Notes: a model not told the origin generated them from the letters alone. DNA of 32,000 nucleotides from Gemmata obscuriglobus (GCF_008065095.1 NZ_CP042911.1:6600001-6632000); one strand, 5' to 3'; positions 14,417 through 32,000 are shown, counted from the first letter of the stretch. A program made the numbers and translations.

Positions 14417-14998
14417 ATGCACACCACGTCCGTGACACTGCTGGCCCGTCTCCGCCAGACCGGAGACGGAGACGCGTGGGCGCGGTTCGTCCGGACGTAC
14501 TCGCCGCTCCTGTACGGGTGGGCCAGGCGGATGGCGCTCGCGCACGACGACGCGGTCGACTTGGTGCAGGACGTGTTCGCCGTTTTGGTCCAGCAAATCC
14601 CCCGGTTCGACTACGACGGGCAGCAGCGGTTCCGCGGCTGGCTGTGGACGATCACCCGCCGGCGGTGGGCGGACCGCAAACGGAAGGCGAGCCTTCCGAT
14701 CGACCCCGGGCGCGACCCGTCCGAACTGCCGGCGGCCAGCGCTGACATCGGACTGGAAGAGGCCGAGTTTCGCGCGCACCTGATCCGGCACGTGGTTCCG
14801 ACCCTTCGCGGGAACTTCCATGAGACCACCTGGCGGTCGTTCTGGAAGCACGTTGTTGACGGCCGGCCCGTGACCGAGGTGGCGGCCGAGGAGGGGGTCA
14901 CCGTGGCGGCGGTCTACAAAGCCAAGCTGCGGGTGACCGCCCACCTCCAAAAGGAACTGGCCGACCTGATGACCGATTCACCCGGCGACCCGTTATGA
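14417..14998 (+). CDS. ECF-type RNA polymerase sigma factor (planctomycete type, kinase-associated)
   Basis: The N-terminus reads TSVTLLARLRQTGDGDAWARFVRTYSPLLYGWARR. Region 2 reads DLVQDVFAVLVQQ...FRGWLWTITRRRWADRKR. Region 4 reads EVAAEEGVTVAAVYKAKLRVTAHLQKEL. The stop overlaps the next gene's start (ATGA at 14995-14998). Confidence 0.85.
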   Translation: MHTTSVTLLARLRQTGDGDAWARFVRTYSPLLYGWARRMALAHDDAVDLVQDVFAVLVQQIPRFDYDGQQRFRGWLWTITRRRWADRKRKASLPIDPGRDPSELPAASADIGLEEAEFRAHLIRHVVPTLRGNFHETTWRSFWKHVVDGRPVTEVAAEEGVTVAAVYKAKLRVTAHLQKELADLMTDSPGDPL

Positions 14999-17046
14999 CC
15001 CCGACCGACCCGTGCCCGCCGGCCGCCGAATTCGAGGCCTTCCTGCGCGGCCGGCTCGACGACGCCCGGTCCGACGCCGTGGAGCGGCACGTCGAGCGGT
15101 GCGCCCGCTGTCAGCGGACGATTGACGGGTTGAGCGTGGACACACGGCTGACGGACGCCCTTCGGGGCGACGACGATCTGGCCGGTGCCCTTTCGGACCC
15201 CGTCACCGACCCGCGGGTCGGGGCGATGGTGGCCCGGATCGAGGAGATGGCCAGCCAGTTCACCCCGGCCGGGTTCGACCTTCACCCTTCGGCCACCGGG
15301 TCCGGGAGCGAGTGCCCGCCGTTCGATCCGCCGCACGCCCCAGAGGACCTGGGGCGGATGAGCGGGTACCGCGTGGTGCGGTTGCTCGGCGGCGGGGGAA
15401 TGGGACTGGTGTATCTGGCCGAGGACGAGGCGCTGCGCCGGCCGGTGGCGGTGAAGATCCTCCGCCCGCGGCTCGCCCGCCACTCCCGCGCCCGGGACGG
15501 GTTCCTCCGGGAAGCCCGGGCGGTGGCGGCGCTCAAGCACGACAACGTGGTGACCGTTTTTCAGGTCGGCGAGGCGGTCGGCCCGGACGGCACGCCGGTG
15601 CCGTTCCTGGCCATGGAACTGCTGGAGGGTGAGAGCCTGGCGGACTGGTTGCGGCGCGGCGAGCGGGTGCCGGCCGGATGGGCCGCCCGGCTCGGTCGCC
15701 AAGCCGCCGAGGGGTTAGCTGCGGCCCACGCCCGCGGGGTCGTTCACCGCGACATCAAACCGGGCAACCTGTGGCTCGAGGTGCCGGCCGGGTGGGCCGA
15801 CCTGCCGCCGGACGGCCGGGCGCCGCTGCCGGCCGTCGCCCGCGTCAAAGTGCTCGACTTCGGACTGGCCCAGCCGGCCGGGATCGGGGACCGCGCGTCG
15901 GTAGCGTTCGGCACGCCGGCGTACATGCCACCGGAGCAAGCGGCCGGGCAGGAAGTCGATCACCGGGCCGACCTGTTCAGCCTCGGAGTCGTGCTGTACG
16001 AACTCGTGGCCGGCCGATTGCCGTTCCCGCGCACCGAATCAGACGAACGCAGCTACGCAACACCCGAACCGGTCGAGCGCCTCGCCCCGGGCGTGCCGCC
16101 GGGTCTCGCCTACCTGATCGGCAGGCTCCTGTCCCCCGCGCCCGCCGACCGCCCGGCCACCGCCCGACAGGTCGCCGCCGAACTCCTCGCGCTGACCACT
16201 GAGGGCGGGGGCACGGCCGGGCGTGACCTCCCCGCACGCCGTCGGTTGCGGCGCGTCGCATGGGCCTTCGGGCTGGCCGCCTTCGTGTTGCTCTTCGCGG
16301 GCATATGTCTGGCGGGTAACAAGTTCCGTCAGCCCGGCGGGCAGGTGGAGTCGGGACCGCTCACCCGCCCCGGCCCGCCGGACGACGAGTGGGTCGCCGC
16401 CGTCACCGCGCTGCCGGTCGACCGCCAGCCGGGCGCGGTGATCGACAAGCTCTGTGAACTCAACCCGGGGTACGACGGTCAGGTGGCCAAGCTCGGGTTC
16501 GAGAACGGAATGGTGACAGAGTTCGCAATCAAAACGGACGACGTGTCGGACATCCGCCCGCTCCGGGCGCTGACCGGGCTCAAATCCCTCTCAGTAACCG
16601 GTAGCGCCCCCGGGCTGGGGCGGTTGGCGGATCTGTCCGCGATTCGCGGCCTCCCGCTCACCGTCTTGAACATTTGGCAGAACCCCGCACTGACCGACCT
16701 GTCAGCGACCCGCGGGATGCAACTCACCGTGATGCAAGCCGGTGACACCGCCGTCGCGGACCTGTCGCCGCTGGAAGGGATGCCGATCAGCATTCTGGCG
16801 GTGAATAACTGCCGGGTGCGAGACGTGTCGCCGGTGCGGACACTTGCCAAGGTCCGCCTGTTCCGCTGCGACGGCTGTCCGATTGACACACTCGAACCGC
16901 TCGCCGGATCGAAGGTGCGGGAACTGATCTGCGATTTCCGACCGACCCGCGGTGACGCGGCCGTACTGGCGCGGATGCCGCAACTCGAATCGATCAACCG
17001 TCTTACCACCGCCGACTTCCTTCGCCGCCACGCCGCGGTTCGGTGA
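14995..17046 (+). CDS. Fusion protein: ZAS-type anti-sigma motif, Hanks Ser/Thr protein kinase, TM helix and extracytoplasmic leucine-rich repeats
   Basis: The signature C-x24-H-x3-C-x2-C is present (CPPAAEF...[11 protein letters not shown]). Kinase motifs are [34 protein letters not shown] and [10 protein letters not shown]. The TM helix is [21 protein letters not shown]. The C-terminus has LRR-like units (LKSLSVTG..., [16 protein letters not shown]...). Confidence 0.85.
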
Positions 17047-17185
17047 AATCGCAGAAAAAGTTCCGCGCGGTGTCCAATCCGGCCGGCTTCACACGAAGCT
17101 CTCATTCGAGGGCAGACCGGCCCTCCATTCATTCCTCTCCACATCCGCACTCGCCCACATCCGACACCCACCCAAAGGAGTGTTC

Positions 17186-18079
17186 ATGGTCGGGGTACGC
17201 ACACGGCCGCGGCGCGGCTTCACGCTGATCGAGCTGCTCGTCGTCATCGCCATCATCGCCATTCTCATCGGGCTGCTGCTGCCGGCCGTTCAGAAGGTCC
17301 GCGAGGCGGCCGCCCGCACCACCTGCTCGAACAACCTGAAGCAACTGTCGCTGGCCCTGCACAACTACGCCAGCAGTACCGGCGACAACAAGTTGCCGCC
17401 GCTCCGGATCACGCTGACCTCGGGCGGAACGAACAAGGCGAGCGCGATGGTCGCGCTGCTGCCATATGTCGAACAAGAGAACCTGTACCGCGCGCACACG
17501 ACGGCCGGGGACGTGGCCGTGAACAAGGGGGCCGTGGTCAAGACGTTCCTGTGCCCCGCCGACGACACCGCCGGAACCGGCGTCGGGCCGAACGGCTGGG
17601 CGGGCAGCTCGTACGCGGTGAACTCCCAACTGCTGGCCGCCAAAGCGTGGTTCGATGTCACCAACGTGGACCAGCCCCGCTACTCGATCGGGAACGTCCC
17701 GGACGGCACGTCGAACACGGTCGCGTTCGCCGAGCGGAAGGTGCTGACCGAGGGCACGCCGTACACCTGCAGTCGCGACATGCCGTACGGCTGGAACAGC
17801 CAGGACAAGTACTACACGGCCGCGTTCGCGATGTACCAGACCACCTACCCGTCGTACTGGGCCACCACGAACTGGTGGTACAACGACCAGAGCATCCAGC
17901 CGGGGGTGACCGGGACCAAGGGCACGCGGTGGGGGGCGAACTCGTCGCACCCGGCGACCGTGCAGCTCGGCATGGCCGACGGGAGCGTCCGCGGGGTGAA
18001 CCGCAGCACCAACATCCTGACCTTCTGGACGGCGGTGATGCCGGACGACAGCCTGGTCCTGCCCGCCGACTGGAACTAA
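17186..18079 (+). CDS. DUF1559 / 'H-X9-DG' protein with a prepilin-type N-terminal cleavage/methylation motif
   Basis: AAAGGAG lies 5 nt upstream of the ATG at 17186. The N-terminus reads [34 protein letters not shown]. The C-terminal [12 protein letters not shown] matches H-x9-DG. I discount the longer ORF-track start at 16952. Confidence 0.9.
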
Positions 18080-18092
18080 CCGGAGAACGCGC

Positions 18093-18488
18093 GTGACGCA
18101 GCTTTTTCGAGCGCTGGCTCTGGCGATCGGTGCCGGACTGGTGGGCGGGTGCGGGTCGTCCACTGGAGACGTGGACCAGCTCACGGGTCGGGTCACAATC
18201 GGCGGCCAACCGGCGAAGGACGTAACGGTAGTGGCGATCGGAACCGATCGGACCGAGGCGAGTGCCTTGACCGGTCCGAACGGGGAGTACGCGCTAACGA
18301 AACCGCCACGAGGTGCGCTGCGGTTCCGGGTAACGGCCCTGGTCCCGCCGCCCCCGGCCGGGGTTCAAGCTCCGCCGCCGCCACCGGGAACGGTGTCCGT
18401 ACCCGCGAAGTACGCCAAACCGGACAACGAACTGGCGTTCACATTCGACGGCGGCCACCAGACCTACGACCTGGAGTTGAAGCGGTAA
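18093..18488 (+). CDS. Small lipoprotein, carboxypeptidase-regulatory-like fold (typical DUF1559 neighbour)
   Basis: The signal peptide has a lipobox (LALAIGAGLVGGC). GRVTIGGQPAKDVTVVAIG...GPNGEYAL resembles CarboxypepD_reg-type domains. Confidence 0.6.
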   Translation: MTQLFRALALAIGAGLVGGCGSSTGDVDQLTGRVTIGGQPAKDVTVVAIGTDRTEASALTGPNGEYALTKPPRGALRFRVTALVPPPPAGVQAPPPPPGTVSVPAKYAKPDNELAFTFDGGHQTYDLELKR

Positions 18489-18503
18489 AGGTGTGAGCTC
18501 GGA

Positions 18504-18536
18504 CACGGCTGACCAGTGCTAGACCGGTCAGCCGTG
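18504..18536. terminator. Hairpin between convergent genes (candidate bidirectional terminator)
   Basis: A perfect 11-bp stem, CACGGCTGACC (18504-18514) pairing with GGTCAGCCGTG (18526-18536), encloses an 11-nt loop. AT-rich sequence (ATATTGCAGTTATTA) follows. Confidence 0.55.
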
Positions 18537-18592
18537 ATATTGCAGTTATTACGTATCGTCCGGTCACTTACAGATCGTGTTCGTCCATATTT

Positions 18593-19477
18593 CTACTTGA
18601 ACACAAGGCATTTCGGCAATGCGTTGCGAATAGTTTTAACGCCCGCGTCCGTCACCTGCGTGGACGTCAGATGCAACACTTTCAACTTCTTCAGCGAGGC
18701 GAGGCTTTTTACGCCCGCATCTGTCACCTGTGTTTTCTCGAGATGAAGCGTCGTGAGCTTATCAAGCGCGGCGAGCTCTTTTAAACCGCCGTCCGTGATT
18801 TTGCATTCCGACAATTGAAGAATCCTCAGCGACTTGAACGCTGCAATTTCCTTGAGACCAGCCTCGGAGATATCTGTCCCACTCAAATAGAGGCTGTGAA
18901 AGCCGTCAATGGCCGCGACCTGCTTCAAACCGACGCCAGTGATCTTGGCCCCATCCAAGCGGAGAGTCGTCAGCCCCTTTAACTTGGCCACGTTCTTGAA
19001 TGCGGCGTCAGTGATTTTTGTGCCCATCAACCATAGTTCCGAGAGGCGCTTCAAAGGCACTAGTTCTCCGATGCCCGCGTCCGTCACAGCGGTCTCGTCG
19101 AGGGCGAGCTTTTCAAGGTGTGTGAGCTTCGCAACATCCTTCAGTCCAGCGTCTGTCACTTTAGTGCGGCTTAGGAGAAGCTCTGTAAGGCCCTTTGATG
19201 AGGTTAGTTCTTTGAGGCCCGCATCGGACACCTGCGTGTCGTACAGGGAAAGGACGGCGAGATGCTTAAAAGCGGCCAGTTCCTTCAGGTCGGCGTCGGC
19301 AATCTTCGTGCCCTCCAACCAGAGTTCTATTACCGATCCGTCCGAATTCCGCGTGATTTTACCTCCAAGTTTTTCAACGAACGCGACCGCCTTGCTCTCA
19401 GCACCATCAGCCCCTACCGGTGCAGACGAACAGAGAACCGACAGCACGACCAACAGCTTCTGCGTGACACACGGCAT
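18593..19477 (-). CDS. Secreted leucine-rich repeat (LRR) protein
   Basis: An N-terminal signal-like segment (LLVVLSVLCSSAPVGA) is followed by about ten 24-aa repeats of the form L..L.L..T.VTDAGLKEL..LK. GC content and codon usage are markedly lower than in the neighbouring genes. Confidence 0.85.
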   Translation of the reverse strand: MPCVTQKLLVVLSVLCSSAPVGADGAESKAVAFVEKLGGKITRNSDGSVIELWLEGTKIADADLKELAAFKHLAVLSLYDTQVSDAGLKELTSSKGLTELLLSRTKVTDAGLKDVAKLTHLEKLALDETAVTDAGIGELVPLKRLSELWLMGTKITDAAFKNVAKLKGLTTLRLDGAKITGVGLKQVAAIDGFHSLYLSGTDISEAGLKEIAAFKSLRILQLSECKITDGGLKELAALDKLTTLHLEKTQVTDAGVKSLASLKKLKVLHLTSTQVTDAGVKTIRNALPKCLVFK

Positions 19478-19689
19478 AATCGCTCCTCAAGGGATACATC
19501 CGGCGTCATTCTATCCCAAGCTGGACTTACGAGACAATTTGCGCCCAGCCAATTTTCCCCCGCTCGCTGGGCTTGACACTGGCAGGGCCGTTGTGGGAAC
19601 CTCTACCCCCGTCAACACTGACACGACTGGCGCAGGTTACCGGGACGACGGCCCCTCACGGATCGAGGGGCGCTGCGAAGGATCACGGA

Positions 19690-20769
19690 ATGATCATCTG
19701 CCGGACCCCTTATCGCATCTCGTTCTTCGGCGGCGGCACCGACTACCCCGCGTGGTACCGGCAACACGGCGGCACCGTCCTCGCCACCGGCATCGACAAA
19801 TACTGTTACCTCACCTGCCGGTACCTGCCGCCGTTCTTTGAGCACCGCATCCGGGTCGTGTACCGGCAGATCGAGACGTGTCTGACGGCCGACGAGGTCG
19901 AGCACCCGGTGGTCCGGGCGGCGCTCCAGCACCTGAACATCGACCGCGGCGTAGAGATCCATCACGACGGCGACCTGCCGGCGCGCAGCGGGATGGGGTC
20001 GAGTTCCGCGTTCACGGTGGGCCTGCTCCACGCCCTGCACGCGCTCAAGGGCGAGATGCCCACGAAGCACCAGCTCGCGAAAGAGGCGATCCACCTGGAA
20101 CAGAACGTTCTGGGCGAAACGGTCGGCTCGCAGGACCAGACGGTCGCGGCGCACGGAGGCTTCAAGCACGTCAAGTTCCACAGCGACGGCGAAATCGAGG
20201 TCTCACCGCTGGTGCTCCCGGCGGGGCGCATCGCCGAGTTAAAGTCGCACCTGATGCTCGTGTACACAGGCATCGTGCGGACCGCGGCGGACGTGGCGCA
20301 GAGCTACGTTCCCGGACTCGAAACCCGGCGCCGGCAGCTCCGCATCATGAAAGAAATGGTGGACGAGGCGATCGAGATCCTGACCGGCGGGGTGAACCTC
20401 GTCGCGTTCGGCGAACTGCTCCACGAAGCGTGGCTCGCGAAGCGGAGCCTGAGCGCCGCGGTGTCGAACCCCGAGGTGGACGCACTCTACCACACCGCCC
20501 TTGAAGCCGGCGCGATCGGCGGGAAGCTCACCGGCGCCGGCGGCGGCGGGTTTCTGCTCCTGTTCGTCCCGCCCGAGCGGCGAAACGACGTTCTGGAAGC
20601 GCTGGACGGCTGCATTCACGTTCCGTTCGAATTCGAGAACGGCGGCAGCCAGATCATCTTCTACGAGCCGGGAACCGACTACGAGGCGGTCGACCGCGCC
20701 CGCGGGTCACGCCGCCGCACGTTCAAGGAACTGCCCCGCCCGGCCCTCCACCCGACGGAGGCCGCATGA
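19690..20769 (+). CDS. GHMP-family sugar kinase, COG2605/HddA-like (D-glycero-D-manno-heptose-7-phosphate kinase family)
   Basis: The N-terminus reads MIICRTPYRISFFGGGTDYPAWY. GHMP motif II is PARSGMGSSSAF and motif III is GGKLTGAGGGGFLLLF. The start is the internal ATG at 19690, not the TTG at 19573. Confidence 0.75.
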   Translation: MIICRTPYRISFFGGGTDYPAWYRQHGGTVLATGIDKYCYLTCRYLPPFFEHRIRVVYRQIETCLTADEVEHPVVRAALQHLNIDRGVEIHHDGDLPARSGMGSSSAFTVGLLHALHALKGEMPTKHQLAKEAIHLEQNVLGETVGSQDQTVAAHGGFKHVKFHSDGEIEVSPLVLPAGRIAELKSHLMLVYTGIVRTAADVAQSYVPGLETRRRQLRIMKEMVDEAIEILTGGVNLVAFGELLHEAWLAKRSLSAAVSNPEVDALYHTALEAGAIGGKLTGAGGGGFLLLFVPPERRNDVLEALDGCIHVPFEFENGGSQIIFYEPGTDYEAVDRARGSRRRTFKELPRPALHPTEAA

Positions 20770-21728
20770 CCCCGCACACGCGCGTTTTCGTGGCCGGCGG
20801 GAACACACTGTACGGTCACGCGCTCACCACCCTACTGCGCGCCGAAGGGTTTGAGAGCCTTGTTGGTGTGGGCACAGCCGAACCGGACCTGACCGACGCA
20901 GCGGCGACCGACGCGTTCTTCGCGCAGGAACGCCCCGAATGCGTCTTCCTGTGCGCCGGGCGGTCCGGCGGGATCGGGCTGAACCGCGCCGCGCCGGTCG
21001 AGCTGATGCGCGACAACTTGCTCACGACGCTCAACGTGCTGGCGTCCGCGCACCGGCACGGAACGGCGAAGCTGCTGTACCTTGCGAGTTCGTGCGCGTA
21101 CCCCAAGCACGCCGCTCAGCCGCTGCAAGTCGAGTCGCTCGGCACCGGCCCGATGGAACCGACCAGCGAGGCGTACTCGACCGCGAAGTTCGCCGGGTGG
21201 AAGCTGTGCGACGCGTACCGGCGCGAGTACGGGTGCCGATTCGTCACGGGCTTCCCGGCGAACGCGTTCGGCCCGCACGACGACTTCACGCCCGAGGGCG
21301 GGCACGTTATCCCCGCCCTGCTCCGCCGCGCTCACGACGCCAAGTCGCGTGGCGATGCGGAACTCGTGGTGTGGGGCACCGGCGCCCCGCGCCGGGAGTT
21401 CGTGTACTCGCGCGACCTGGCCCGCGCGTGCCTCTTCGTGGCCCGCAACTACGAAGGCGAGGCCCCGATCAACCTCGGCGGCGGCACCGACCTGAGCATT
21501 GCCGACGTGGCCCACGCGGTCGCGGAGGTTGTGGGCTTCAAGGGCCGGTTGGTTTTCGACACGACCAAGCCGGACGGCGCCCCGCTGAAGGCGCTCGATT
21601 CGGCACCGCTGCTGGACATGGGCTGGCGGCCGGAGTCGGACTTCCGGGCCGCACTGAACGAGACGTACCACTGGTTCCTGCACCACCGCGCCACGGAGGG
21701 CCGCACGCATGCACGCCGGGCTGTATAG
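20766..21728 (+). CDS. GDP-L-fucose synthase (Fcl) / GDP-L-colitose synthase (ColC)-like SDR epimerase-reductase
   Basis: It is about 320 aa with an N-terminal Rossmann segment, VFVAGGNTLYGHAL. It has LYLASSCAYP, the catalytic YSTAKF (YxxxK), and NAFGPHDDF...HVIPALL, which is typical of Fcl. It overlaps the preceding gene by 4 nt (ATGA). Confidence 0.7.
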   Translation: MTPHTRVFVAGGNTLYGHALTTLLRAEGFESLVGVGTAEPDLTDAAATDAFFAQERPECVFLCAGRSGGIGLNRAAPVELMRDNLLTTLNVLASAHRHGTAKLLYLASSCAYPKHAAQPLQVESLGTGPMEPTSEAYSTAKFAGWKLCDAYRREYGCRFVTGFPANAFGPHDDFTPEGGHVIPALLRRAHDAKSRGDAELVVWGTGAPRREFVYSRDLARACLFVARNYEGEAPINLGGGTDLSIADVAHAVAEVVGFKGRLVFDTTKPDGAPLKALDSAPLLDMGWRPESDFRAALNETYHWFLHHRATEGRTHARRAV

Positions 21729-22674
21729 GTCGCTGTATCGCATTCGCCGCGTCGAGGAAGAGATCGCGCGGGTGTACGCGACCGACAAGATCAAGAGTCC
21801 GGTCCACCTGTCGATCGGGCAGGAGGCGGTGTCGGTCGGCGTGTGCGACGTGCTGCGCCCCGACGATGTCGTGTTCGGCACCTACCGCGGGCACGCCATG
21901 TACCTCGCCAAGGGCGGGGACATGAGCGCGATGGTGGCCGAGTTGTACGGGAAGGTGACGGGCTGCACCCGCGGCAAGGGCGGGTCGATGCACCTCATCG
22001 ACACCGAGTGCGGGGTGATGGGCACGTCCGCGGTGGTGGGCACGACGATCGCCAACGCCGCCGGCTACGCTTACGCGCTGAAAGTGCGGCGCTCCGACGC
22101 GGTGGTGGTGTGCTTCTTCGGAGATGGCGCCACGGAAGAGGGTGTGTTCGCCGAAACGCTCAACTTCGCGGTGCTGAAGAAGCTGCCCGTGCTGTTCGTG
22201 TGCGAGAACAACGGGTACGCGATCCACACCGCGCAGTCGAAGCGTCAGGGGCTGCCGGACATCTGCGCCCGCGCCCGCGCCTACGGGATGCCGGCCGAGC
22301 GGCTCGACGGCAACGACGTCCTTACCCTCCGCGATAAGGCCGCGGACCTGGTCGCACAACTGCGGGCCGGCGCCGGGCCGCAGTTCCTCGAAGCCACCAC
22401 GTACCGCTGGCGCGAGCACGTGGGGCCGGGGCAAGACTTCAAACTCGGTTACCGGTCGCAGGCCGAGTGCGAGCGCTGGTACGAGAGCGATCCCGTGCGC
22501 GTGCTCGCGGCCCAATTGCCCGCGGATGTGCGAACGAAGATCGAGGCCGCGGCGGAGCGCGAGGTGGCCGCGGCGTTCGAGTTCGCCGAGAGCAGCCCGT
22601 TCCCGCACCCGTCCGAACTCATGACCGACATCTTCACGGAGGACAGCAATGAGTTTGCCGCTTGTGGGCGCTAA
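21709..22674 (+). CDS. Thiamine-diphosphate-dependent dehydrogenase E1 component, alpha-subunit-like
   Basis: Motifs are SPVHLSIGQEAVSVG, GKGGSMH and VVCFFGDGATEEGVFAETLNFA...PVLFVCENNGYAI, the last being the GDG-x(n)-NN ThDP motif. It overlaps fcl-like by 20 nt. Confidence 0.8.
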   Translation: MHAGLYRSLYRIRRVEEEIARVYATDKIKSPVHLSIGQEAVSVGVCDVLRPDDVVFGTYRGHAMYLAKGGDMSAMVAELYGKVTGCTRGKGGSMHLIDTECGVMGTSAVVGTTIANAAGYAYALKVRRSDAVVVCFFGDGATEEGVFAETLNFAVLKKLPVLFVCENNGYAIHTAQSKRQGLPDICARARAYGMPAERLDGNDVLTLRDKAADLVAQLRAGAGPQFLEATTYRWREHVGPGQDFKLGYRSQAECERWYESDPVRVLAAQLPADVRTKIEAAAEREVAAAFEFAESSPFPHPSELMTDIFTEDSNEFAACGR

Positions 22675-23752
22675 GACGGCGCCGCGGGTCGCCCCCAAAG
22701 TCGCGACCGAGCGAACGAAGTCCTTCGTCGAGGCCGTGCGCGAGGCCACCGAACTGGAAATGGCCCGCGACCCGAACGTCGTGCTGTTCGGGCTCGACGT
22801 GGACGACCCGAAGGCGATCCAGGGCACCACGCTCGGGCTGCCGGAAAAGTTCGGCGCGGAGCGGGTGTTCGGCACGCCGCTGTCCGAGGACGCGATGACC
22901 GGCGCGGCGATCGGCATGGCCCTCGCCGGGCTGCGCCCGATCCACGTCCACATCCGCATGGACTTCCTCTTACTGGCGGTGAACCAACTGCTGAACGTGG
23001 GGGCCAAGAGCCGCTACATGTACGGCGGGCGTGTGAATGTGCCGATGGTCGCGCGGGCGATGATCGGCAAGAGCTGGGGCCAGGGCGCGCAGCACTCGCA
23101 GGGCTTGCACTCGTTCTTCATGCACGTGCCGGGCATCAAGGTGGTCGCGCCTTCGACGCCCTACGACGCGAAGGGCACGCTGGCCGCGGCGGTCCGCGAC
23201 GACGACCCCGTGCTGTACGTCGAACACCGGTTGCTGCACTTCCAAAAGGGGCCGGTCCCGGCGGAGGCCTACACGGTCGAACCGGGCAAGGCGCGCGTCG
23301 CGGTTGCTGGCGACGACGTGACCGTGGTGGGCATCTCGTACATGCAGGTCGAGGCGCTCCGGGCCGCGAAGTACCTGGAAGACGTTGGCGTGAAGGCCGA
23401 AGTGATCGACCCGATCTGGCTCAACCCGCTGGACACCGACACCATCGCAGAATCGGTGCGGAAGACGGGCCGGCTTCTGGTGGTTGATACCGCGTGGACC
23501 AACTGCGGCGCCGCGGCCGAAATCGTGTCACGGGTGGCGGAGAAGCTCCAGGGCGAATGCGCGTTCCGGTTCAAGCGGATGGGCTTCGCGCCGACCACGT
23601 GCCCCACGACCCCGGTGCTGGAAGACGCGTTCTACCCGAACGCCCAGAAGATCGCGGCGGCGGCCCGCGACCTGGTTGAGGGTCGCGCGTGCGGGTGGAT
23701 CCCGGCCGAGCGCGCGGACCTGCGGAGCATCGAGTTCAAAGGCCCGTTCTGA
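22649..23752 (+). CDS. E1 component beta-subunit-like (transketolase pyrimidine-binding and C-terminal domains)
   Basis: Motifs are FVEAVREATELEMARDPNVVLFGLDV, RVFGTPLSEDAMTGAAIGMALAGLRP and VVAPSTPYDAKGTL. The C-terminal domain has VTVVGISYMQVEALRAA...GVKAEVIDPIWLNPLD. It overlaps the alpha gene by 26 nt. Confidence 0.8.
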   Translation: MSLPLVGAKTAPRVAPKVATERTKSFVEAVREATELEMARDPNVVLFGLDVDDPKAIQGTTLGLPEKFGAERVFGTPLSEDAMTGAAIGMALAGLRPIHVHIRMDFLLLAVNQLLNVGAKSRYMYGGRVNVPMVARAMIGKSWGQGAQHSQGLHSFFMHVPGIKVVAPSTPYDAKGTLAAAVRDDDPVLYVEHRLLHFQKGPVPAEAYTVEPGKARVAVAGDDVTVVGISYMQVEALRAAKYLEDVGVKAEVIDPIWLNPLDTDTIAESVRKTGRLLVVDTAWTNCGAAAEIVSRVAEKLQGECAFRFKRMGFAPTTCPTTPVLEDAFYPNAQKIAAAARDLVEGRACGWIPAERADLRSIEFKGPF

Positions 23753-23763
23753 TCTTGCCGGAG

Positions 23764-23784
23764 CGCGGGCCTCCGGCCCGCTTT
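23764..23784 (+). terminator. Intrinsic-terminator-like hairpin after the E1 beta gene
   Basis: GCGGGCC-TCC-GGCCCGC forms a 7-bp GC stem with a 3-nt loop. TTTT follows immediately, 12 nt after the stop codon. Confidence 0.6.
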
Positions 23785-23894
23785 TGCCCGGGCGCCGGTA
23801 ACACGGACAACGTCATCGCCGCGCACAGCGGAAGCGGGCCAAAAGCCCGCGCTCCGGCGCGACCACACACGGCAGTACACCACGGAAGACGCAC

Positions 23895-25094
23895 ATGCCG
23901 AGCACGAAGCCCGCGGCCAAACTGAACTGGCCGCTGATGAAGAACAACATCGCCCGCGAAGACCTCAACGCGGTCATCGAGCTGCTGCAACAGGAAGACC
24001 CGATCCTGACGCAGTCGAAGAACGTCCGTGCGTTCGAGGCCGAGTGGTCCCAGTGGCTCGGCGTGAAGCACAGCGTGTTCGTGAACTCGGGCTCGAGCGC
24101 GAACCTCGTCACGATCGCCGCGCTGAAAGAGTTGCACGGCGCCGGCGGCGAGGTGATCGTCCCCGCGATCACCTGGGTGTCGGACATCTCCGCGGTGCTC
24201 CACTGCGGGTTCACGCCGGTGTTCGCGGACATCAACCCGCGCACGCTCAGCATGGACACGGAGCAGATCCTGTCGAAGATCACGCCCCAAACCCGGGCCG
24301 TGTTCCTCACGCACGTCCTGGGGTACAACGGGCTCACCGATAAGCTCCTCACAGAACTGAAGGCCCGGGGCATCCCGCTGATCGAAGACGTGTGCGAGTC
24401 GCACGGCGCGACCTTCCGGAACCAGAAGCTCGGCAGCTTCGGCTGGGCGTCGAACTTCTCCTTCTATTACGCGCACCACCTCAGCACTATTGAGGGCGGG
24501 ATGGTGTGTACGGACGACGAGGACCTGTACGAAGCCGTCCGGATGATGCGCGGGCACGGGATGGTGCGCGAGCTCGCCGGCAGCGACCGCAAGGCCGGCT
24601 ACTTCGAAGAGAATCCGGACCTGAACCCGGACTTCATCTTCGCGTTCCCGGCGTACAACGTGCGCAGCACCGAGGTGAACGCCGTCATCGGCCGCTCGCA
24701 GCTCCCGCGCCTGGACGCGAACAACGAGAAGCGCACGGCGAACTTCATGCTGTTCCTGCGGAACCTGGACCCGGACCTGTACCGCACGGACTTCGACACC
24801 GAGGGGAGCAGCAACTACGCGTTCACTCTCGTGTTGAAGGAGCCGAACCAGGGTCTTTACGAGCGCGTCGTTGCGGCCCTGCGGGGCGCGAATGTGGAGT
24901 TCCGCCGCGGCACCGCGGGCGGCGGGAACCAATTGCGCCAGCCGTACCTGCGCCGGCTCCTGGGTGACGACGCCTGGAAGCAGTGCCCGATCGCGGACCA
25001 CGTCCACTTCTACGGGTTCTACATCGGCAACTACCCGACCCTCGACGCCGACAGCATTCTCAAACTGTGCGACCTCTTGAACGGTCTGAAGTAA
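23895..25094 (+). CDS. DegT/DnrJ/EryC1-fold PLP enzyme of the ColD / E1 (RfbH/DdhC) 3-dehydratase type, with His replacing the Schiff-base Lys
   Basis: From my recollection of ColD, the protein appears to align along its whole length. Shared segments include SVFVNSGSSANLVTIAAL, GGEVIVPAITW, LIEDVCESHGATF and SNFSFYYAHHLSTIEGGMVCTDDEDLY. The active-site segment has no Lys. The Cys-rich Fe-S motif of E1 is absent. Confidence 0.75.
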   Translation: MPSTKPAAKLNWPLMKNNIAREDLNAVIELLQQEDPILTQSKNVRAFEAEWSQWLGVKHSVFVNSGSSANLVTIAALKELHGAGGEVIVPAITWVSDISAVLHCGFTPVFADINPRTLSMDTEQILSKITPQTRAVFLTHVLGYNGLTDKLLTELKARGIPLIEDVCESHGATFRNQKLGSFGWASNFSFYYAHHLSTIEGGMVCTDDEDLYEAVRMMRGHGMVRELAGSDRKAGYFEENPDLNPDFIFAFPAYNVRSTEVNAVIGRSQLPRLDANNEKRTANFMLFLRNLDPDLYRTDFDTEGSSNYAFTLVLKEPNQGLYERVVAALRGANVEFRRGTAGGGNQLRQPYLRRLLGDDAWKQCPIADHVHFYGFYIGNYPTLDADSILKLCDLLNGLK

Positions 25095-25098
25095 CCCC

Positions 25099-25152
25099 CG
25101 CCTGCCCGGCGGGGCAGGCGTTCACCGCGCCGGGCGTGAGTGCTACGCCCGG
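25099..25152 (+). other. Two tandem GC-rich hairpins in the intercistronic spacer
   Basis: The first hairpin is CGCCTGCCC-GGCG-GGGCAGGCG (25099-25120). The second is CCGGGCGT-GAGTGCT-ACGCCCGG (25130-25152). Neither is followed by a strong T-tract. Confidence 0.5.
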
Positions 25153-25178
25153 CCGTGCCCCATCGACGGACACTCAAC

Positions 25179-26768
25179 ATGGCGCCACGACTCGACCTCG
25201 TTCTGATCAACCCGAGCAGCCGCACGCAGGTGTACCAGTCGCTGGGCACGGAACTCGCGGCGGTGGAAAACCCGGTGTGGGCCGGCCTGATGGCGAACTT
25301 CTGTCGCCAGAAGGGGCTGTCGGTCGAAATCATTGATGCCGAGGCCGAGTGCCTTTCGCCCTCCGAAGTTGCCGACCGAGTGGCGTACCTGCGCCCGGTG
25401 CTAACGGCGGTCGTGGCCTACGGGCACCAGCCATCGGCCTCGACGCAGATCATGACCGCGGTCAGCCGCGCGTGCTCCGCCGTAAAGGTGGCGTGCTCTG
25501 AACAGCCGGTTCTGCTGCTCGGCGGACACGTCGCGGCGCTGCCGGAGCGCACGCTCCGCGAGGAAGAAGCCGATTTCGTCGCCGCGGGCGAAGGGGTCCA
25601 CACGCTCGCCGGCCTGGTCGAAGCACTGAAGTCGGCGGTGCCGGACGTGAGCGCCGTGCCCGGGCTGTACTTCCGCGACAACGGCCGCGTCCGGCGCGGG
25701 CCGGCGGCACCGCTGCTGTCGAATCTCGACACCGAGTTGCCCGGAATCGCCTGGGACCTGCTCCCGATGCCGCGGTACCGGGCGCACAACTGGCACTGCC
25801 TCGGCGGGCACGAGCGCCAGCCGTACGCCGCCGTCTACACCACCCTCGGCTGCCCCTACCAGTGCTCGTTCTGCTGCATTCAGGCGCCGTTCAAGAACGG
25901 TGAGGTGGCCCCGCTCGGACAAAAACAGCCTCCAAACAGCTACCGGTTCTGGAGCATCGATCACGTCCTCGGGCAGATCGACACGCTGGTGAACAAATAC
26001 GGCGTGCGGAACATCAAGATCGCGGACGAGATGTTCGTGCTCAACAAGCGGCACGTCGTCGGCATCTGCGACGGCATCATCGCTCGGGGCTACGATCTGA
26101 ACATCTGGGCCTACACCCGGGTGGATACCATCAAGGACGGGATGCTGCCGAAGCTCAAGGCGGCCGGGTTCAACTGGCTCGCGGTCGGGATCGAGGCCGG
26201 GGCCGACCGCGTCCGCACCGACGTGGACAAAGCGTTCTCCCAAGAACAGGTCTATTCGGTGGTGCGCGAGATCCAGTCGGCGGGCATCAGCGTGATCGGG
26301 AATTACATCTTCGGGTTGCCCGAAGACGACCACGCCACGATGCGGGCGACGCTCGATCTGGCGCTCGACCTGAAGTGCGAGTTCGCAAACTTCTACTCCG
26401 CGATGGCCTACCCGGGCTCGCCGCTGTACGCCACGGCGACCCAGAAGGGCATCCCTCTACCCCGGCGCTGGACCGGCTACTCGCAGCACTCGCGCGACAG
26501 CCTGCCGCTGCCCACGCGGTACCTGCCGGCGCGCGAGGTGCTGAAGTTCCGCGACGCCGCCTTCACCGAGTACTACACCGACCCGGGCTACCTCGCGATG
26601 GTCGAGCGCCGCTTCGGCGCGCAATCGGTCGAAGAACTCCGACGCATGACGGCCATCACGCTCGAACGCGACCTGCTCTCGGGCGCCTTGGACGTGGAAC
26701 CGACGCTCCTCCCCCCGGACGAGGCGCAGACCACGCCGGCCGAGTTGCTTCAGCTCGCGAAACGGTAA
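25179..26768 (+). CDS. B12-binding-domain radical SAM enzyme (class B rSAM, methyltransferase-like)
   Basis: The N-terminus is a Rossmann-type cobalamin-binding-like domain (LVLINPSS...VVAYGHQPSAS...LLLGGHVAALPE). The radical SAM cluster motif CxxxCxxC is present in TTLGCPYQCSFCC. GIEAG and NYIFGLPEDD are typical of the family. Confidence 0.8.
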   Translation: MAPRLDLVLINPSSRTQVYQSLGTELAAVENPVWAGLMANFCRQKGLSVEIIDAEAECLSPSEVADRVAYLRPVLTAVVAYGHQPSASTQIMTAVSRACSAVKVACSEQPVLLLGGHVAALPERTLREEEADFVAAGEGVHTLAGLVEALKSAVPDVSAVPGLYFRDNGRVRRGPAAPLLSNLDTELPGIAWDLLPMPRYRAHNWHCLGGHERQPYAAVYTTLGCPYQCSFCCIQAPFKNGEVAPLGQKQPPNSYRFWSIDHVLGQIDTLVNKYGVRNIKIADEMFVLNKRHVVGICDGIIARGYDLNIWAYTRVDTIKDGMLPKLKAAGFNWLAVGIEAGADRVRTDVDKAFSQEQVYSVVREIQSAGISVIGNYIFGLPEDDHATMRATLDLALDLKCEFANFYSAMAYPGSPLYATATQKGIPLPRRWTGYSQHSRDSLPLPTRYLPAREVLKFRDAAFTEYYTDPGYLAMVERRFGAQSVEELRRMTAITLERDLLSGALDVEPTLLPPDEAQTTPAELLQLAKR

Positions 26769-26917: not shown

Positions 26918-28303
26918 TCACGACCGCTTCAGCCACTCGAACGGCTTCCGCAGCAACGAGCGCAACCAATCAGCCGCACGATGCCGTCGCGGCGGTACCG
27001 CCTGCTTTCGTCGCTCCAGTTCTTGATAGAACCCGAGTAGTGTCGTCCAGGCCGCGAGCGCATCCGCCGGCGGCAGATTGCCTGCGTGAGCGAACTGGCG
27101 CAGCACCCGCTGGTGGTTTGCGAACCAATTCGTGCTGCGCGAGAAGCCTCCCGGCCGGTGCCGGTAGTAGAACAGGTGCGCGGGCACCACACCGAGCCGG
27201 TGACCGGCGTGGACCAGTTTCACGAACGCTTCCCAGTCCTCGCATGAGGTGCCGCGGTCGGTCTCGTACCCATCAACGGCACGAAGCGCAGGCGTGCGGA
27301 AAATGGCGTTCGCATCGCCGTACACGTTGCGAATGCTGGCGAGCGCGTGCGGCCCGCCTGTTGGTCGAAGGGCGTACAGAAACTGTTCGGGAACGAAGCC
27401 CGGCGCCGGCACGTCGAACGCCAGGAAGTAGGACGACATCGCAGCAAGTTCGGGGTTCCGCTGCATGGCGCGCACGAACGTCGCCACCATCTCGGGCGTC
27501 GCGAGGTTGTCCGCGTCCACGGGAATAAAGAACTCGCCCCGGGCGAGTTCCAGGCACCGGTTACGGGTCACACCGATGCCCGCATTCGGCTGGCGCAGGA
27601 AAGTAAACCGCGGGTACTTTGTCCGCATCGCCTCAAACGTTTCAATCGATGCGGCATCCGTAGAGCCGTCGTCGATCGCGATGACCTCGAGGTTCGGGTA
27701 GGTCTGAGCGGCCAACGTCGCGAGCGTATCGGGGAAATATGCGCCCAAGTTGTAATGAGCGATGGCGAGCGTCACAAGCGGCGCGGCCTCTTGTGACGTT
27801 CCTGAATTGGGGGCGGGCAACGGCGAGGTGTTCTTCGCACCATTGCGCATCGCCCAGTGATTCCGCTTTACGAACTCGACCAGCTCGGCATCCGGGGTAT
27901 GTTGCTCGTCGGCGTTCTCGAACTGGTACCGTTCAATGTAATCCGTTTCCACATCGACAAAGCCTGACGGCCACCGCTGACCGGCCTCCCGATCCCGCTG
28001 GCTGTTGCCGTCAAGGATCACGGCGATCGGCACATCTCCGAACGCTAGTCCGGCCCGCTTCGCCTGCACCGATCGAAAACCCAGACCTCCCTGACCCACG
28101 AACGCGATCAGCCCGTACTGCCGCTCACGGTGCCGGGCTTCGAGCCAATACCGAACCCGGTCCGAGAGTTCGGCCGGGCCGTTTCCGTGATGCTCACGGA
28201 CCTGCGCGTCTCGCGGAAGATCCCCCACCGTATCGGCTGCGAAAACGTCCACGTCCCAACCCGCCCGGGTCAGTTCGCGCTGAGCGGGGTGTTGACGGAT
28301 CAA
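26918..28303 (-). CDS. Two-domain glycosyltransferase: GT-B-like N-terminal half plus a GT2 (GT-A, DxD) C-terminal domain
   Basis: The GT2 core reads VTLAIAHYNLGAYFPDTLATLAAQTYPNLEVIAIDDGSTD...FIPVDADN. The N-terminal half reads GWDVDVFAAD...YGLIAFVGQGGLGF...VPIAVILDGNS. The start is uncertain. One option is TTG at 28303, which forms a TTGA overlap with the glf stop. The other is GTG at 28360, which would overlap glf by 61 nt. The ORF-track start at 28642 is implausible. Confidence 0.7.
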   Translation of the reverse strand: MIRQHPAQRELTRAGWDVDVFAADTVGDLPRDAQVREHHGNGPAELSDRVRYWLEARHRERQYGLIAFVGQGGLGFRSVQAKRAGLAFGDVPIAVILDGNSQRDREAGQRWPSGFVDVETDYIERYQFENADEQHTPDAELVEFVKRNHWAMRNGAKNTSPLPAPNSGTSQEAAPLVTLAIAHYNLGAYFPDTLATLAAQTYPNLEVIAIDDGSTDAASIETFEAMRTKYPRFTFLRQPNAGIGVTRNRCLELARGEFFIPVDADNLATPEMVATFVRAMQRNPELAAMSSYFLAFDVPAPGFVPEQFLYALRPTGGPHALASIRNVYGDANAIFRTPALRAVDGYETDRGTSCEDWEAFVKLVHAGHRLGVVPAHLFYYRHRPGGFSRSTNWFANHQRVLRQFAHAGNLPPADALAAWTTLLGFYQELERRKQAVPPRRHRAADWLRSLLRKPFEWLKRS

Positions 28304-29445
28304 GCAGCCGGGGACAACGAGGCAGGCGCTCCGGCGCTCCGGCGGATCGTCTGAAAGCACGCGAGCGCCTCCTGAATCACTTCGTCGGTGTTGAAATATC
28401 GGTACTGCGCCAGCCGGCCGCAAAAGTACACACGGTTGCTCGCCGTTTCCGCCTCGGCAAGAGCACGATAGCGGGCGTACAGTTCCGCACTTGCACGTTG
28501 CGGCACCGGGTAGAACGGCTCTCCTTCGGCGCACGGCGTTTCGTAGCTCACGACCGTCTCGGCGTGGCACTGCCCGGTCACGTGTTTGATCTCGACGGAG
28601 CGCGTGTAGGTGAAGTCGTTGGGGTAGTTGATCTGCACGCACGGCTGGCGCCAGGCGACCGCGTGCGGCACGAACTCAAACTTCAACGACCGGTACGGCA
28701 GTTTCCCGAGCCTGTTATCGAAGTAGGCGTCCACCGGCCCGCAATAGACCGTTGCCCGGCGCGGATGGATCAGATGGCGCACCTCGCTGAAATCGCAGTT
28801 CAGAAGCGTGCGAATCTTCGGGTGCTTCAGCATCCGCGCGAACAACTTCGTGAACCCGCCGGCCGGCATCACCTGGAACTTGTGCCCCACGTACCGCCCA
28901 TCCCGGTTCAGGCGCACCGGCACCCGACCGCACACCTGCGGGTCGAGGTCGCGCGGGTGGACGCCCCACTGTTTCCGCGTGTAGTGGAGGTAAAACGCTT
29001 CGTACAGCTCGCGCCCCACTCGGCTGAGCACGTACTCTTCCGAGTTCGTGGGGTCGGCGATCGGCACACGGCGCTCCGCGAGGAGTTGCTCAGCGGAGTC
29101 CGCATCGAGCTTCCGGCCGAAAAACTGTTCGAGGGTGCCGAGGTTGATCGGGAACGGGTACAGTTGGTCGCCCACCAGCGACCGCACTTCGTACTTCGCC
29201 GGCGCGAACTCGGCGAACCGCGACAGGTACCGCAGCAGGTTCTCGTCGTCGGTGCGGAAGTAGTGCGGGCCGTAGTTGTGGACCAGAACGCCGTTCGTCG
29301 CGGGCGAGTCGTGGCAGTTACCGGCGATGTGAGGCCGCCGGTCGATGACGAGCACCTTCCACCCGAGTACGCTAGCGGCGCGCTCGGCGACCACGCACCC
29401 GACCGGCCCGGCCCCGCACACGAGCAGATCAACGTCGTCGAGCAT
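28300..29445 (-). CDS. glf: UDP-galactopyranose mutase
   Basis: The FAD-binding motif is DLLVCGAGPVGCVVAER. Also present are KVLVIDRRPHIAGNCHD, HNYGPHYFRT, YPFPINLGTLEQFFG, YTRKQWG and PYRSLKFEF. The ATG at 29445 is preceded by GAGG and lies just after the upstream stop. Confidence 0.85.
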   Translation of the reverse strand: MLDDVDLLVCGAGPVGCVVAERAASVLGWKVLVIDRRPHIAGNCHDSPATNGVLVHNYGPHYFRTDDENLLRYLSRFAEFAPAKYEVRSLVGDQLYPFPINLGTLEQFFGRKLDADSAEQLLAERRVPIADPTNSEEYVLSRVGRELYEAFYLHYTRKQWGVHPRDLDPQVCGRVPVRLNRDGRYVGHKFQVMPAGGFTKLFARMLKHPKIRTLLNCDFSEVRHLIHPRRATVYCGPVDAYFDNRLGKLPYRSLKFEFVPHAVAWRQPCVQINYPNDFTYTRSVEIKHVTGQCHAETVVSYETPCAEGEPFYPVPQRASAELYARYRALAEAETASNRVYFCGRLAQYRYFNTDEVIQEALACFQTIRRSAGAPASLSPAA

Positions 29446-31999: not shown

Positions 32000-32000
32000 C

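Follow-up and report, generated by a model that had tools for sequence, protein, structure and literature searches.

The 32,000-nucleotide stretch of Gemmata obscuriglobus DNA analyzed here (GCF_008065095.1, NZ_CP042911.1:6600001-6632000; the window) carries six plus-strand genes at 19690-26768. They encode, in order, a GHMP sugar kinase, a short-chain dehydrogenase/reductase (SDR) of the Fcl/ColC family, the alpha- and beta-type subunits of a thiamine diphosphate (ThDP)-dependent 2-oxoacid dehydrogenase E1, a DegT-type pyridoxal phosphate (PLP) enzyme and a B12-binding radical S-adenosylmethionine enzyme (rSAM) of class B architecture (Table 1). We consider it somewhat more probable than the contrary that this cassette converts GDP-heptose into a deoxygenated, carbon-extended sugar for a surface glycan.

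The first four genes overlap in succession, and a 142-nt gap separates the E1 beta gene from the PLP gene. Open reading frame (ORF) coordinates agreed with independent gene calls on identical public contigs, as for the PLP gene, whose coding is identical on contig ABGO01000264 of GCA_000171775.1. The co-orientation and overlaps described in an initial annotation, made from the sequence alone, are thus confirmed. An in-frame GTG at 25140 is a possible upstream start of the rSAM. Matches in Pfam, NCBIfam and the PDB bore out all six family assignments of that annotation, and none of the six proteins reached a curated NCBIfam equivalog cut-off. The annotation had also pointed out that the window lacks a nucleotidyltransferase and an enzyme to form the 4-keto sugar. 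Neither was found within it, and a candidate SDR for the latter step lies just past the window end. Rfam detected neither a riboswitch nor any further RNA element there, and promoter and terminator scans of the window gave nothing above chance.

Distribution and co-conservation of the cassette

Relatives of the rSAM were collected by scanning one genome per species with two rSAM peptide motifs, which yielded at least 542 confirmed relatives. The best 80 of these loci (designated by L numbers), with rSAMs 49-82% identical to the Gemmata protein, were taken for neighborhood analysis; their ORFs were clustered and the recurrent families were then annotated. These 80 loci come from more than 10 phyla, among them Planctomycetota, Cyanobacteria, Verrucomicrobiota, Nitrospirota, Acidobacteriota, Myxococcota, Elusimicrobiota, Omnitrophota, Poribacteria, Chloroflexota and four proteobacterial classes. 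All six genes were present in identical order, with 55-83% identity by tblastn, in at least 14 of the 80 loci, which belong to Planctomycetota, Cyanobacteria, Nitrospirota, Verrucomicrobiota and proteobacterial metagenome-assembled genomes. The full gene set also occurred in Acidobacteriota, Myxococcota, several proteobacterial classes and candidate phyla.

Gene partners were counted in the 38 loci, again from more than 10 phyla, that extend at least 8 kb to either side of the rSAM. Beside the rSAM stood a GHMP kinase in 34/38 loci, a PLP enzyme with an active-site His (see below) in 35/38, a ThDP pair (E1 alpha/beta or a split transketolase) in 35/38 and an Fcl-like SDR in 29/38. Two families from outside the Gemmata cassette proper recurred as well, a 314-aa SDR resembling Cj1427 (27/38) and an HddC- or ManC-like nucleotidyltransferase (22/38); a NUDIX hydrolase was a further recurrent partner. 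The rSAM and the kinase formed the most constant pair, and the E1 beta gene always accompanied the E1 alpha gene. This arrangement is far beyond chance. A failure of the genes to be co-conserved, which the annotation had named as a result that would undo its prediction, is refuted by the order and identity kept across phyla, and the co-conservation indicates that the cassette is a real, mobile unit.

The same data contradict an incidental juxtaposition, in which the E1 pair would be a fragment of a pyruvate dehydrogenase (PDH) or acetoin dehydrogenase, the rSAM would be unrelated, and the rest would be a GDP-fucose or GDP-colitose operon of the ordinary kind. In line with this explanation, the rSAM bears the name 'coproporphyrinogen III oxidase' or 'anaerobic Mg-protoporphyrin cyclase' in public annotations, and the E1 subunits score best on PDH models. 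The genes nevertheless overlap translationally, their order is kept across phyla, a ThDP pair is present in 35/38 loci, and all scores fall under the PDH, HemN and BchE cut-offs. The annotation's observation that the ThDP pair comes without E2 and E3 also held: the window contains no such gene, and none was among the families that recur across the 80 related loci. We regard a chance association as very improbable.

Some loci contain reduced sets, among them plasmids of cultured Azospirillum strains; Niveibacterium sp. 24ML is a further carrier that is in culture. Plasmid AZO_p6 of Azospirillum lipoferum 4B (L087, 12690-17382) carries the Fcl-like, rSAM, kinase and NUDIX genes. Plasmid p5 of A. 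argentinense Az39 (L088) has a split transketolase, the rSAM, the Cj1427-like SDR and the kinase without the PLP enzyme, and additionally a second cobalamin protein and a methyltransferase. L063 and L065 resemble the Azospirillum sets, with the rSAM and kinase and no PLP or ThDP gene nearby. The rSAM was also present in A. ramasamyi and on pDMC1 of Solidesulfovibrio magneticus RS-1, and L046, L047 and L063 each contain two paralogous rSAM copies.

Table 1. Genes of the cassette and its surroundings (window coordinates unless a locus is named)
Feature	Position	Strand	Remarks
GHMP sugar kinase, HddA-like	19690-20769	+	359 aa
Fcl/ColC-derived SDR	20766-21728	+	320 aa; 4-nt overlap with kinase gene
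ThDP-dependent 2-oxoacid dehydrogenase E1 alpha-type subunit	21709-22674	+	321 aa; 20-nt overlap with Fcl-like gene
E1 beta-type subunit	22649-23752	+	367 aa; 26-nt overlap with E1 alpha gene
DegT-type PLP enzyme, predicted ColD-type sugar 3-dehydratase	23895-25094	+	399 aa
B12-binding rSAM, class B architecture	25179-26768	+	529 aa (called start)
Leucine-rich repeat (LRR) protein	18593-19477	-	divergent, upstream of cassette
Family 2 glycosyltransferase (GT2)	26918-28360	-	Pfam Glyco_tranf_2_3, Glycos_transf_2; convergent-operon gene nearest to cassette
UDP-galactopyranose mutase (GLF)	28300-29445	-	Pfam GLF, NAD_binding_8
Family 1/4 glycosyltransferase (GT1)	29454-30593	-	Pfam Glyco_trans_1_4
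GT2	30888-31826	-	Pfam Glycos_transf_2
Further GT2, 3' end	31946-32000	-	cut by window end; gene calls on L001, L085, L086
Cj1427-like SDR	~32932-33873 (outside window)	-	gene calls; L001:12935-13876, L085:7311-8252
Polyprenyl-phosphate-type GT2	L085:5063-5833		256 aa; best models AglJ, dolichyl-phosphate hexose transferase
Polytopic membrane protein	L085:3353-4984		543 aa; no Pfam match; adjoins 256-aa GT2

Proposed heptose supply, C3 deoxygenation and C4 oxidation

The kinase matched Pfam GHMP_kinases_N and GHMP_kinases_C. Its best NCBIfam model was HddA, the D-glycero-D-manno-heptose 7-phosphate kinase type (137 bits vs a cut-off of 600), and its best PDB matches were heptose kinases, namely WcbL (4usk/4usm), 3k85 and 4n3o (~1e-35). 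It is the sole kinase candidate in those related loci that also carry gmhA, gmhB and hddC-like genes (e.g., L017, L018, L033, L039 and L045), an association absent from the Gemmata window itself. The GmhA-like isomerase of the related loci scored 206 bits against the PRK13936 phosphoheptose isomerase model (cut-off 276) and 195 bits against TIGR00441 (cut-off 209), the GmhB phosphatase passed its cut-off (159 vs 150 bits), and the nucleotidyltransferase is HddC- or ManC-like. Because of these genes and the Cj1427-like SDR described below, GDP-heptose is the most likely substrate of the cassette, as far as gene content can tell. The initial annotation had allowed for a hexose or a heptose; this context supports the latter and conflicts with the former.

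The PLP enzyme matched Pfam DegT_DnrJ_EryC1 (PF01041, 225 bits), the fold-type I sugar aminotransferase scaffold, with RfbH as its best NCBIfam model (183 bits vs a cut-off of 423). Its best PDB match was ColD (2gms/3gr9, 4e-53) in an end-to-end alignment, and the match to the E1/RfbH-type dehydrase 3bcx was weaker (3e-31). The segment 'YAHHLST' aligned to 'YSHHIAT' of ColD, which places a His-His pair at His188-His189, where His replaces the Schiff-base Lys; the column of ColD residue 188 was fixed by the PDB variants H188N (3b8x, 'SNH') and H188K (2r0t, 'SKH'). This His was found in 61 of the 62 PLP homologues beside the rSAM, the L084 copy having Lys, and it is also kept in a second PLP clade that is only ~33% identical to the Gemmata protein. 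The five Cys of the enzyme are scattered and form no CxC iron-sulfur motif, and no E3-type reductase partner was present among the recurrent neighbors in related loci. The His at the ColD His188 position and the lack of an iron-sulfur motif indicate that this is a dehydratase-type enzyme and not an ordinary aminotransferase. Whether it would group with ordinary aminotransferases had been set beforehand as a test of the ColD-type assignment, which stands. We predict that the enzyme catalyzes C3 deoxygenation of a GDP-4-keto sugar, glutamate serving as amino donor.

Formation of that 4-keto sugar may be assigned to an SDR that is encoded within the convergent glycosyltransferase operon, ~1 kb beyond the end of the window. 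The Gemmata SDR matched PDB 6VO6 at 2.6e-102 over residues 1-312 of 313 and is 68-86% identical to an SDR family found in 49/80 related loci; the recurrent 314-aa SDR matched the same structure at 3.6e-98. We take 6VO6 to be Cj1427, the GDP-heptose C4-dehydrogenase, with which its depositor name, 'Putative sugar-nucleotide epimerase/dehydratease', is consistent. Judged by these matches, the SDR is the pathway's missing 4-keto-forming enzyme and not a 4,6-dehydratase, and no 4,6-dehydratase was recurrent with the cassette in related loci. Since the linked 4-keto-forming enzyme is not of the 4,6-dehydratase type, the C6 hydroxyl is probably retained, and the product is probably a 3-deoxy rather than a 3,6-dideoxy sugar.

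The biochemistry of the Campylobacter jejuni enzymes is consistent with such an assignment. Cj1427 recycles its bound NADH with 2-oxoglutarate, producing L-2-hydroxyglutarate, and Cj1427 together with the HS:5 PLP C3-dehydratase converted GDP-heptose to GDP-D-glycero-3-deoxy-4-keto-heptose in vitro, for which m/z 616.08 was reported (PMC10680097). In that study, GDP-3-deoxy-heptoses count among the novel modifications that different mixtures of the enzymes gave (PMC10680097). A gene for L-2-hydroxyglutarate oxidase was located in the sugar cluster of 7/38 loci (L018, L028, L033, L041, L052, L068 and L071) but not near the Gemmata cassette. Its L052 representative scored 355 bits against NF008726 (cut-off 299), and the copies of the other loci are 32-36% identical to it. 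This co-location would fit recycling of L-2-hydroxyglutarate, the by-product of Cj1427; no published mention of a link between the oxidase and Cj1427-type dehydrogenases was found.

The initial annotation had proposed a GDP-3,6-dideoxy sugar, made by a 4,6-dehydratase, ColD and ColC and bearing a C4 acyl or hydroxyethyl branch, a C-methyl group, or both. Its family assignments are right, E1-type branching and ColD/ColC chemistry are established (PMC12247030, PMC10680097), and C. jejuni makes 3,6-dideoxy-heptoses through a 4,6-dehydratase and a PLP 3-dehydratase (PMC10680097). It does not account for the Cj1427-like SDR that takes the place of a recurrent 4,6-dehydratase in 27/38 loci and in Gemmata, or for the L-2-hydroxyglutarate oxidase genes beside that SDR, and its hexose option clashes with the gmhA, gmhB and hddC-like context. 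We therefore do not follow the annotation as to the 3,6-dideoxy product and judge this version of the pathway unlikely.

The ThDP pair, the Fcl-like reductase and the radical SAM enzyme

The E1 alpha subunit matched Pfam E1_dh (210 bits), the NCBIfam PDH E1 alpha model (308 bits vs a cut-off of 394) and the E1 alpha subunits of PDH and branched-chain 2-oxoacid dehydrogenase in the PDB (1e-45), and it contains the GDG...NN ThDP motif. The E1 beta subunit matched Pfam Transket_pyr and Transketolase_C and scored 258 bits on the NCBIfam PDH E1 beta model (cut-off 321). The Gemmata pair is an orphan E1 alpha/beta embedded in a deoxy-keto-sugar gene cluster. A split transketolase, consisting of N- and C-terminal subunits, took the place of the E1 pair in 8/38 loci. 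Over all loci, split transketolases were found in L034, L036, L037, L041, L049, L052, L055, L079, L082, L083 and L084; those of L052 and L084 accompany an E1 pair. As a second ThDP family replaces the E1 pair at the same position, a role in two-carbon (C2) transfer appears more plausible than a PDH role. A D-2-hydroxyacid dehydrogenase was encoded alongside the split transketolase in L037, L041 and L052, which are among the 8/38, and also in L049. This enzyme may supply hydroxypyruvate, so that a hydroxyacetyl rather than an acetyl unit would be transferred.

Orphan E1-type pairs attach C2 branches to keto sugars in the aldgamycin, kibdelomycin, avilamycin, trioxacarcin and paulomycin pathways; branching by KbDH alpha/beta was demonstrated in vitro, and transketolases have been proposed for the hydroxyacetyl branches in miharamycin (PMC12247030). 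The annotation's view of pairs such as AviB1/AviB2 as C2-branching enzymes on keto sugars agrees with this literature. We infer, by analogy, that the ThDP pair of the cassette adds a C2 unit to the sugar keto group, and the acceptor carbon is proposed on the same footing. The likeness to AviB and KbDH is one of gene context.

The Fcl-like SDR scored 346 bits against the GDP-L-fucose synthase model NF047922 (cut-off 500) and matched GDP-fucose synthases in the PDB at 1e-81 to 1e-77 with ~45% identity. Ser-x-Cys and YxxxK motifs are conserved among the cassette Fcl-like proteins, and SSC, YSTAK and GPH are present in the Gemmata protein. The position equivalent to His179, which together with Cys109 (E. 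coli numbering) we take to be the acid/base pair of Fcl epimerization, is Gly in most cassette orthologues, and the whole clade has G-x-x-T-x-x-G instead of the Rossmann motif G-x-x-G-x-x-G. The Fcl/ColC-like assignment of the initial annotation holds for the family, within which the cassette proteins form a divergent subfamily. After ColD-type deoxygenation, C4 would be the only ketone, and it is this ketone that a typical Fcl/ColC-like enzyme would reduce. Since the clade is atypical and the gene is absent from 9/38 loci, the Fcl-like SDR may instead act on the carbonyl of the new branch, or the order of the steps may differ.

The rSAM matched Radical_SAM (PF04055, 51.8 bits) and, marginally, B12-binding (PF02310, 33.7 bits vs a cut-off of 32.1), and its CxxxCxxC motif is 'CPYQCSFC'. 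All NCBIfam matches were far under their cut-offs, with HpnJ at 127 bits (cut-off 578), BchE at 122 and ApyD at 112. Sequence matches in the PDB were limited to AprD4 and MgmA, of which AprD4 gave 5.9e-13 (51 bits; 63 bits vs a cut-off of 500 in NCBIfam). The AlphaFold model was mediocre (pLDDT, the predicted local distance difference test score, of 66). Foldseek placed its predicted fold nearest TsrM, OxsB, CysS, AprD4, TokK and MgmA, which identifies only the general cobalamin-rSAM fold, and identity to any solved member was at most ~19%.

C-methylation, the reaction that the initial annotation assigned to the rSAM, becomes one option among several, as HpnJ and BchE are the curated models nearest to the rSAM and AprD4 is its nearest solved structure by sequence. 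Enzymes of this architecture offer good precedents for methylation of unactivated carbons; GenK and Fom3 convert CH2OH to CH(OH)CH3, to which a reaction at heptose C7 would be analogous, and class B architecture is common to the non-methylating OxsB, AprD4, BchE and HpnJ. We hold methylation to be the leading candidate at somewhat less than even chance, dehydration of the side chain to be unlikely and carbocyclization to be still less likely, and leave the substantial remainder to some other reaction. The occurrence of the rSAM and kinase without PLP or ThDP genes suggests that the conserved rSAM reaction is independent of the C2 unit, and the rSAM may act earlier than, or independently of, the branch.

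A TylC3/EvaC-type sugar C-methyltransferase dependent on S-adenosylmethionine (Methyltransf_13/14) is added in L027, L031, L036 and L065. Methylation beside the keto group is apparently an optional modification in its own right.

The match to AprD4, the best among solved structures, suggests a route in which the rSAM would act as a 1,2-diol dehydratase on the C6-C7 glycol. The resulting 6-deoxy-7-aldehyde would be extended by the E1 pair or transketolase to a nonose, and the Cj1427-like SDR, ColD-like and Fcl-like enzymes would carry out a colitose-like 3-deoxygenation and C4 reduction of the ring. Transketolases and E1 enzymes usually take aldehydes as their acceptors, the Fcl-like enzyme would keep its canonical role as a C4-reductase, and competition for the C4 ketone would disappear. 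The AprD4 match is weak, however, and AprD4 is not known to use cobalamin, whereas the cassette rSAM has a B12-binding domain. We know of no precedent for such a dehydration of a heptose side chain and consider this route, including its ring chemistry, rather improbable, slightly more so than the 3,6-dideoxy version.

The association of the best rSAM models, HpnJ and BchE, with carbocycle formation invites comparison with caryose, a 4,8-cyclo-3,9-dideoxy-nonose whose biosynthesis has been stated to be unknown (PMC9092360). After C2 addition at C4, the rSAM would join C7 to the branch carbonyl, giving a cyclopentane-fused sugar of the caryose type. The retro-biosynthesis fits atom by atom: the 3-deoxy position, the retained C6 hydroxyl and the tertiary C4 hydroxyl are all accounted for, and pyruvate would provide the C9 methyl. 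HpnJ and BchE nevertheless score far under their cut-offs, and no rSAM homologue from Burkholderia, Trinickia or other Burkholderiaceae was among the top 120 matches of a betaproteobacterial query. The A. lipoferum p6, L063 and L065 sets, in which the rSAM and kinase lack ThDP and PLP partners, make such a cyclization less likely, as the rSAM reaction there does not depend on the C2 unit. We consider this route improbable to a greater degree than side-chain extension. Taken as one claim, that the ThDP pair and rSAM rebuild GDP-3-deoxy-4-keto-heptose into a nine- or ten-carbon sugar, either chain-extended or caryose-like and carbocycle-fused, is unlikely, on a par with the 3,6-dideoxy version. 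If it were true, the cassette would provide the first genes for higher or carbocyclic lipopolysaccharide sugars of this sort, and the rSAM, instead of methylating, would catalyze a novel reaction on a sugar nucleotide, either C-C bond formation or diol dehydration.

Two further sugars were considered and set aside. An erwiniose-like 3,6,8-trideoxy-4-C-hydroxyethyl-octose could arise from a heptose by 3,6-dideoxygenation, C2 branching and C7 methylation. Erwiniose is made from CDP-3,6-dideoxy-4-keto-hexose and a C5 keto acid by a YerE-like enzyme (PMC9306805), and we dropped the idea because of this published CDP-hexose route and because the 4-keto-forming enzyme of the cassette is not of the 4,6-dehydratase type. 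The published 11-gene cluster for bradyrhizose includes a dTDP-glucose 4,6-dehydratase, and no link to the cassette was made.

Proposed pathway, glycan assembly and relation to known systems

The pathway we favor leads from GDP-heptose to a 3-deoxy, carbon-extended sugar. GmhA, the HddA-like kinase, GmhB and an HddC-like guanylyltransferase would produce GDP-heptose, with the three Gemmata partner genes presumably located elsewhere in the genome. The Cj1427-like SDR would oxidize C4, its NADH being recycled by 2-oxoglutarate and the C6 hydroxyl left untouched, and the ColD-type enzyme would take off the C3 hydroxyl to give GDP-3-deoxy-4-keto-heptose. The E1 alpha/beta pair would then decarboxylate pyruvate and add the C2 unit to the sugar carbonyl, most likely the C4 ketone, creating a 4-C-acetyl or 4-C-hydroxyethyl branch. 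The rSAM would alter an unactivated heptose carbon, our leading guess being C-methylation, for example at C7, and the Fcl-derived SDR would perform a final ketoreduction with or without epimerization. The product would pass to the adjacent glycosyltransferases for incorporation into a surface glycan; a large membrane protein and a GT2 of the polyprenyl-phosphate type, encoded farther downstream, may receive it as well. The substrates of the tailoring enzymes and the order of these steps are put forward as the arrangement that best suits the gene content.

Several observations weigh against this proposal. The HddA score of the kinase is far under the cut-off, the identification of 6VO6 with Cj1427 is tentative, its support being the depositor's molecule name, and a separate 4,6-dehydratase may be encoded elsewhere in the Gemmata genome. 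ColC-like C4 reduction and ThDP addition would compete for the single C4 ketone. The nearest rSAM models, HpnJ and BchE, and its nearest solved relative, the diol dehydratase AprD4, are not methyltransferases, and A. lipoferum 4B p6, L063 and L065 have the rSAM and kinase without a nearby PLP or ThDP gene.

The operon that converges on the cassette has the order GT2, GLF, GT1, GT2, GT2, followed outside the window by the Cj1427-like SDR and a sulfotransferase. With its four glycosyltransferases, GLF, SDR and sulfotransferase, it ties the cassette, we infer, to glycan assembly, and GLF suggests that galactofuranose is part of the same glycan. Members of the GT2 family represented at 30888-31826 (cluster c18) are found after the cassette in 8 further loci. 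After the convergent operon, at ~35.3-37.8 kb in window coordinates, lie the genes for the 256-aa GT2 and the 543-aa membrane protein. GT2s associated with the cassette in 16 loci share 67-84% identity with the former, and a GT2 of this type was counted in 9/38 full-flank loci. The two proteins could form a lipid-carrier route with a GT-C-like transferase, and part of the product may be transferred by way of a lipid-phosphate carrier on the periplasmic side.

The G+C content falls to 0.59-0.60 at 18001-20000, around the LRR gene and the first part of the cassette; it is 0.66-0.76 upstream and 0.63-0.69 across the cassette and glycosyltransferase operon. This dip is compatible with a horizontally acquired glycan island. 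Antisense ORFs at 20832-21881, 21538-23007, 23736-25007 and 25401-26333, all on the minus strand, were rejected as shadow ORFs of high-GC DNA and are not genes; their 'homologues' recur in related loci, overlapping the real genes. Farther upstream on the plus strand are three apparently unrelated neighbors, a 1741-aa ORF with a weak C-terminal beta-propeller match (7394-12619), a Ser/Thr protein kinase (14995-17046) and a DUF1559 protein of a kind typical of planctomycetes, which bears an N-terminal methylation motif (16952-18079).

The cassette resembles the capsular GDP-heptose pathways of C. jejuni in its HddA-like kinase, in the GmhA, GmhB and HddC-like genes of related loci, and in combining a Cj1427-like SDR, a His-type PLP 3-dehydratase and an Fcl-family reductase (cf. 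the Cj1428-type C4-reductases). It differs in that its kinase and reductase are under the equivalog cut-offs and in that the C. jejuni pathways contain no ThDP or radical SAM enzyme. There, C4-dehydrogenase and 3-dehydratase were mixed in vitro (PMC10680097), whereas the cassette loci encode this pairing naturally. With the GDP-colitose pathway (Gmd, ColD and ColC), the cassette shares a ColD-type PLP enzyme with an active-site His and an SDR of the ColC/Fcl family. It would act on a heptose instead of a 6-deoxy-hexose, it lacks a linked 4,6-dehydratase of the Gmd type, and it has four extra enzymes (kinase, two E1 subunits and rSAM).

Like the actinomycete C2-branching enzymes of the alpha-KADH2 superfamily, the cassette places an orphan E1 pair in a deoxy-keto-sugar gene set (PMC12247030). 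The actinomycete enzymes act on dTDP-hexoses in secondary metabolism, whereas the cassette has a GDP-heptose surface-glycan context in many Gram-negative phyla. Yersiniose and erwiniose biosynthesis (YerE/YerF and ErwE/ErwF) likewise proceeds from a 3-deoxy-4-keto nucleotide sugar through ThDP-dependent carboligation and then reduction (PMC9306805). YerE-like enzymes, however, belong to the decarboxylase (acetolactate-synthase-like) ThDP superfamily and not to the E1 type, and these pathways use CDP-hexoses and E1/E3 (RfbH-type) 3-deoxygenation and have no rSAM. The cobalamin rSAMs that act on sugars and alcohols (GenK, GenD1, Fom3, OxsB, AprD4, HpnJ and calditol synthase) share the N-terminal B12-binding domain and CxxxCxxC core with the cassette rSAM, which is distant from the solved members and under all curated cut-offs.

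The initial annotation knew of no characterized pathway that combines these enzymes, and neither an NCBIfam equivalog nor a description in the literature searched was found. None of the enzyme types is new, and the early steps would follow those of the C. jejuni heptose pathways; what appears to be new is the combination of genes acting on a GDP-heptose. The reactions proposed for the ThDP pair and rSAM on a GDP-heptose are unprecedented. The enzymology to be gained would include the natural synthesis of 3-deoxy-heptoses, an E1-type carboligase specific for GDP-sugars, for which some loci have a transketolase instead, and a highly conserved cobalamin radical SAM enzyme. Solving the cassette would correct a widespread mis-annotation of its proteins as coproporphyrinogen oxidase, BchE and pyruvate dehydrogenase, and would provide glycan analysts with a predicted mass and composition. 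Its distribution implies that its product is a common surface sugar of environmental bacteria.

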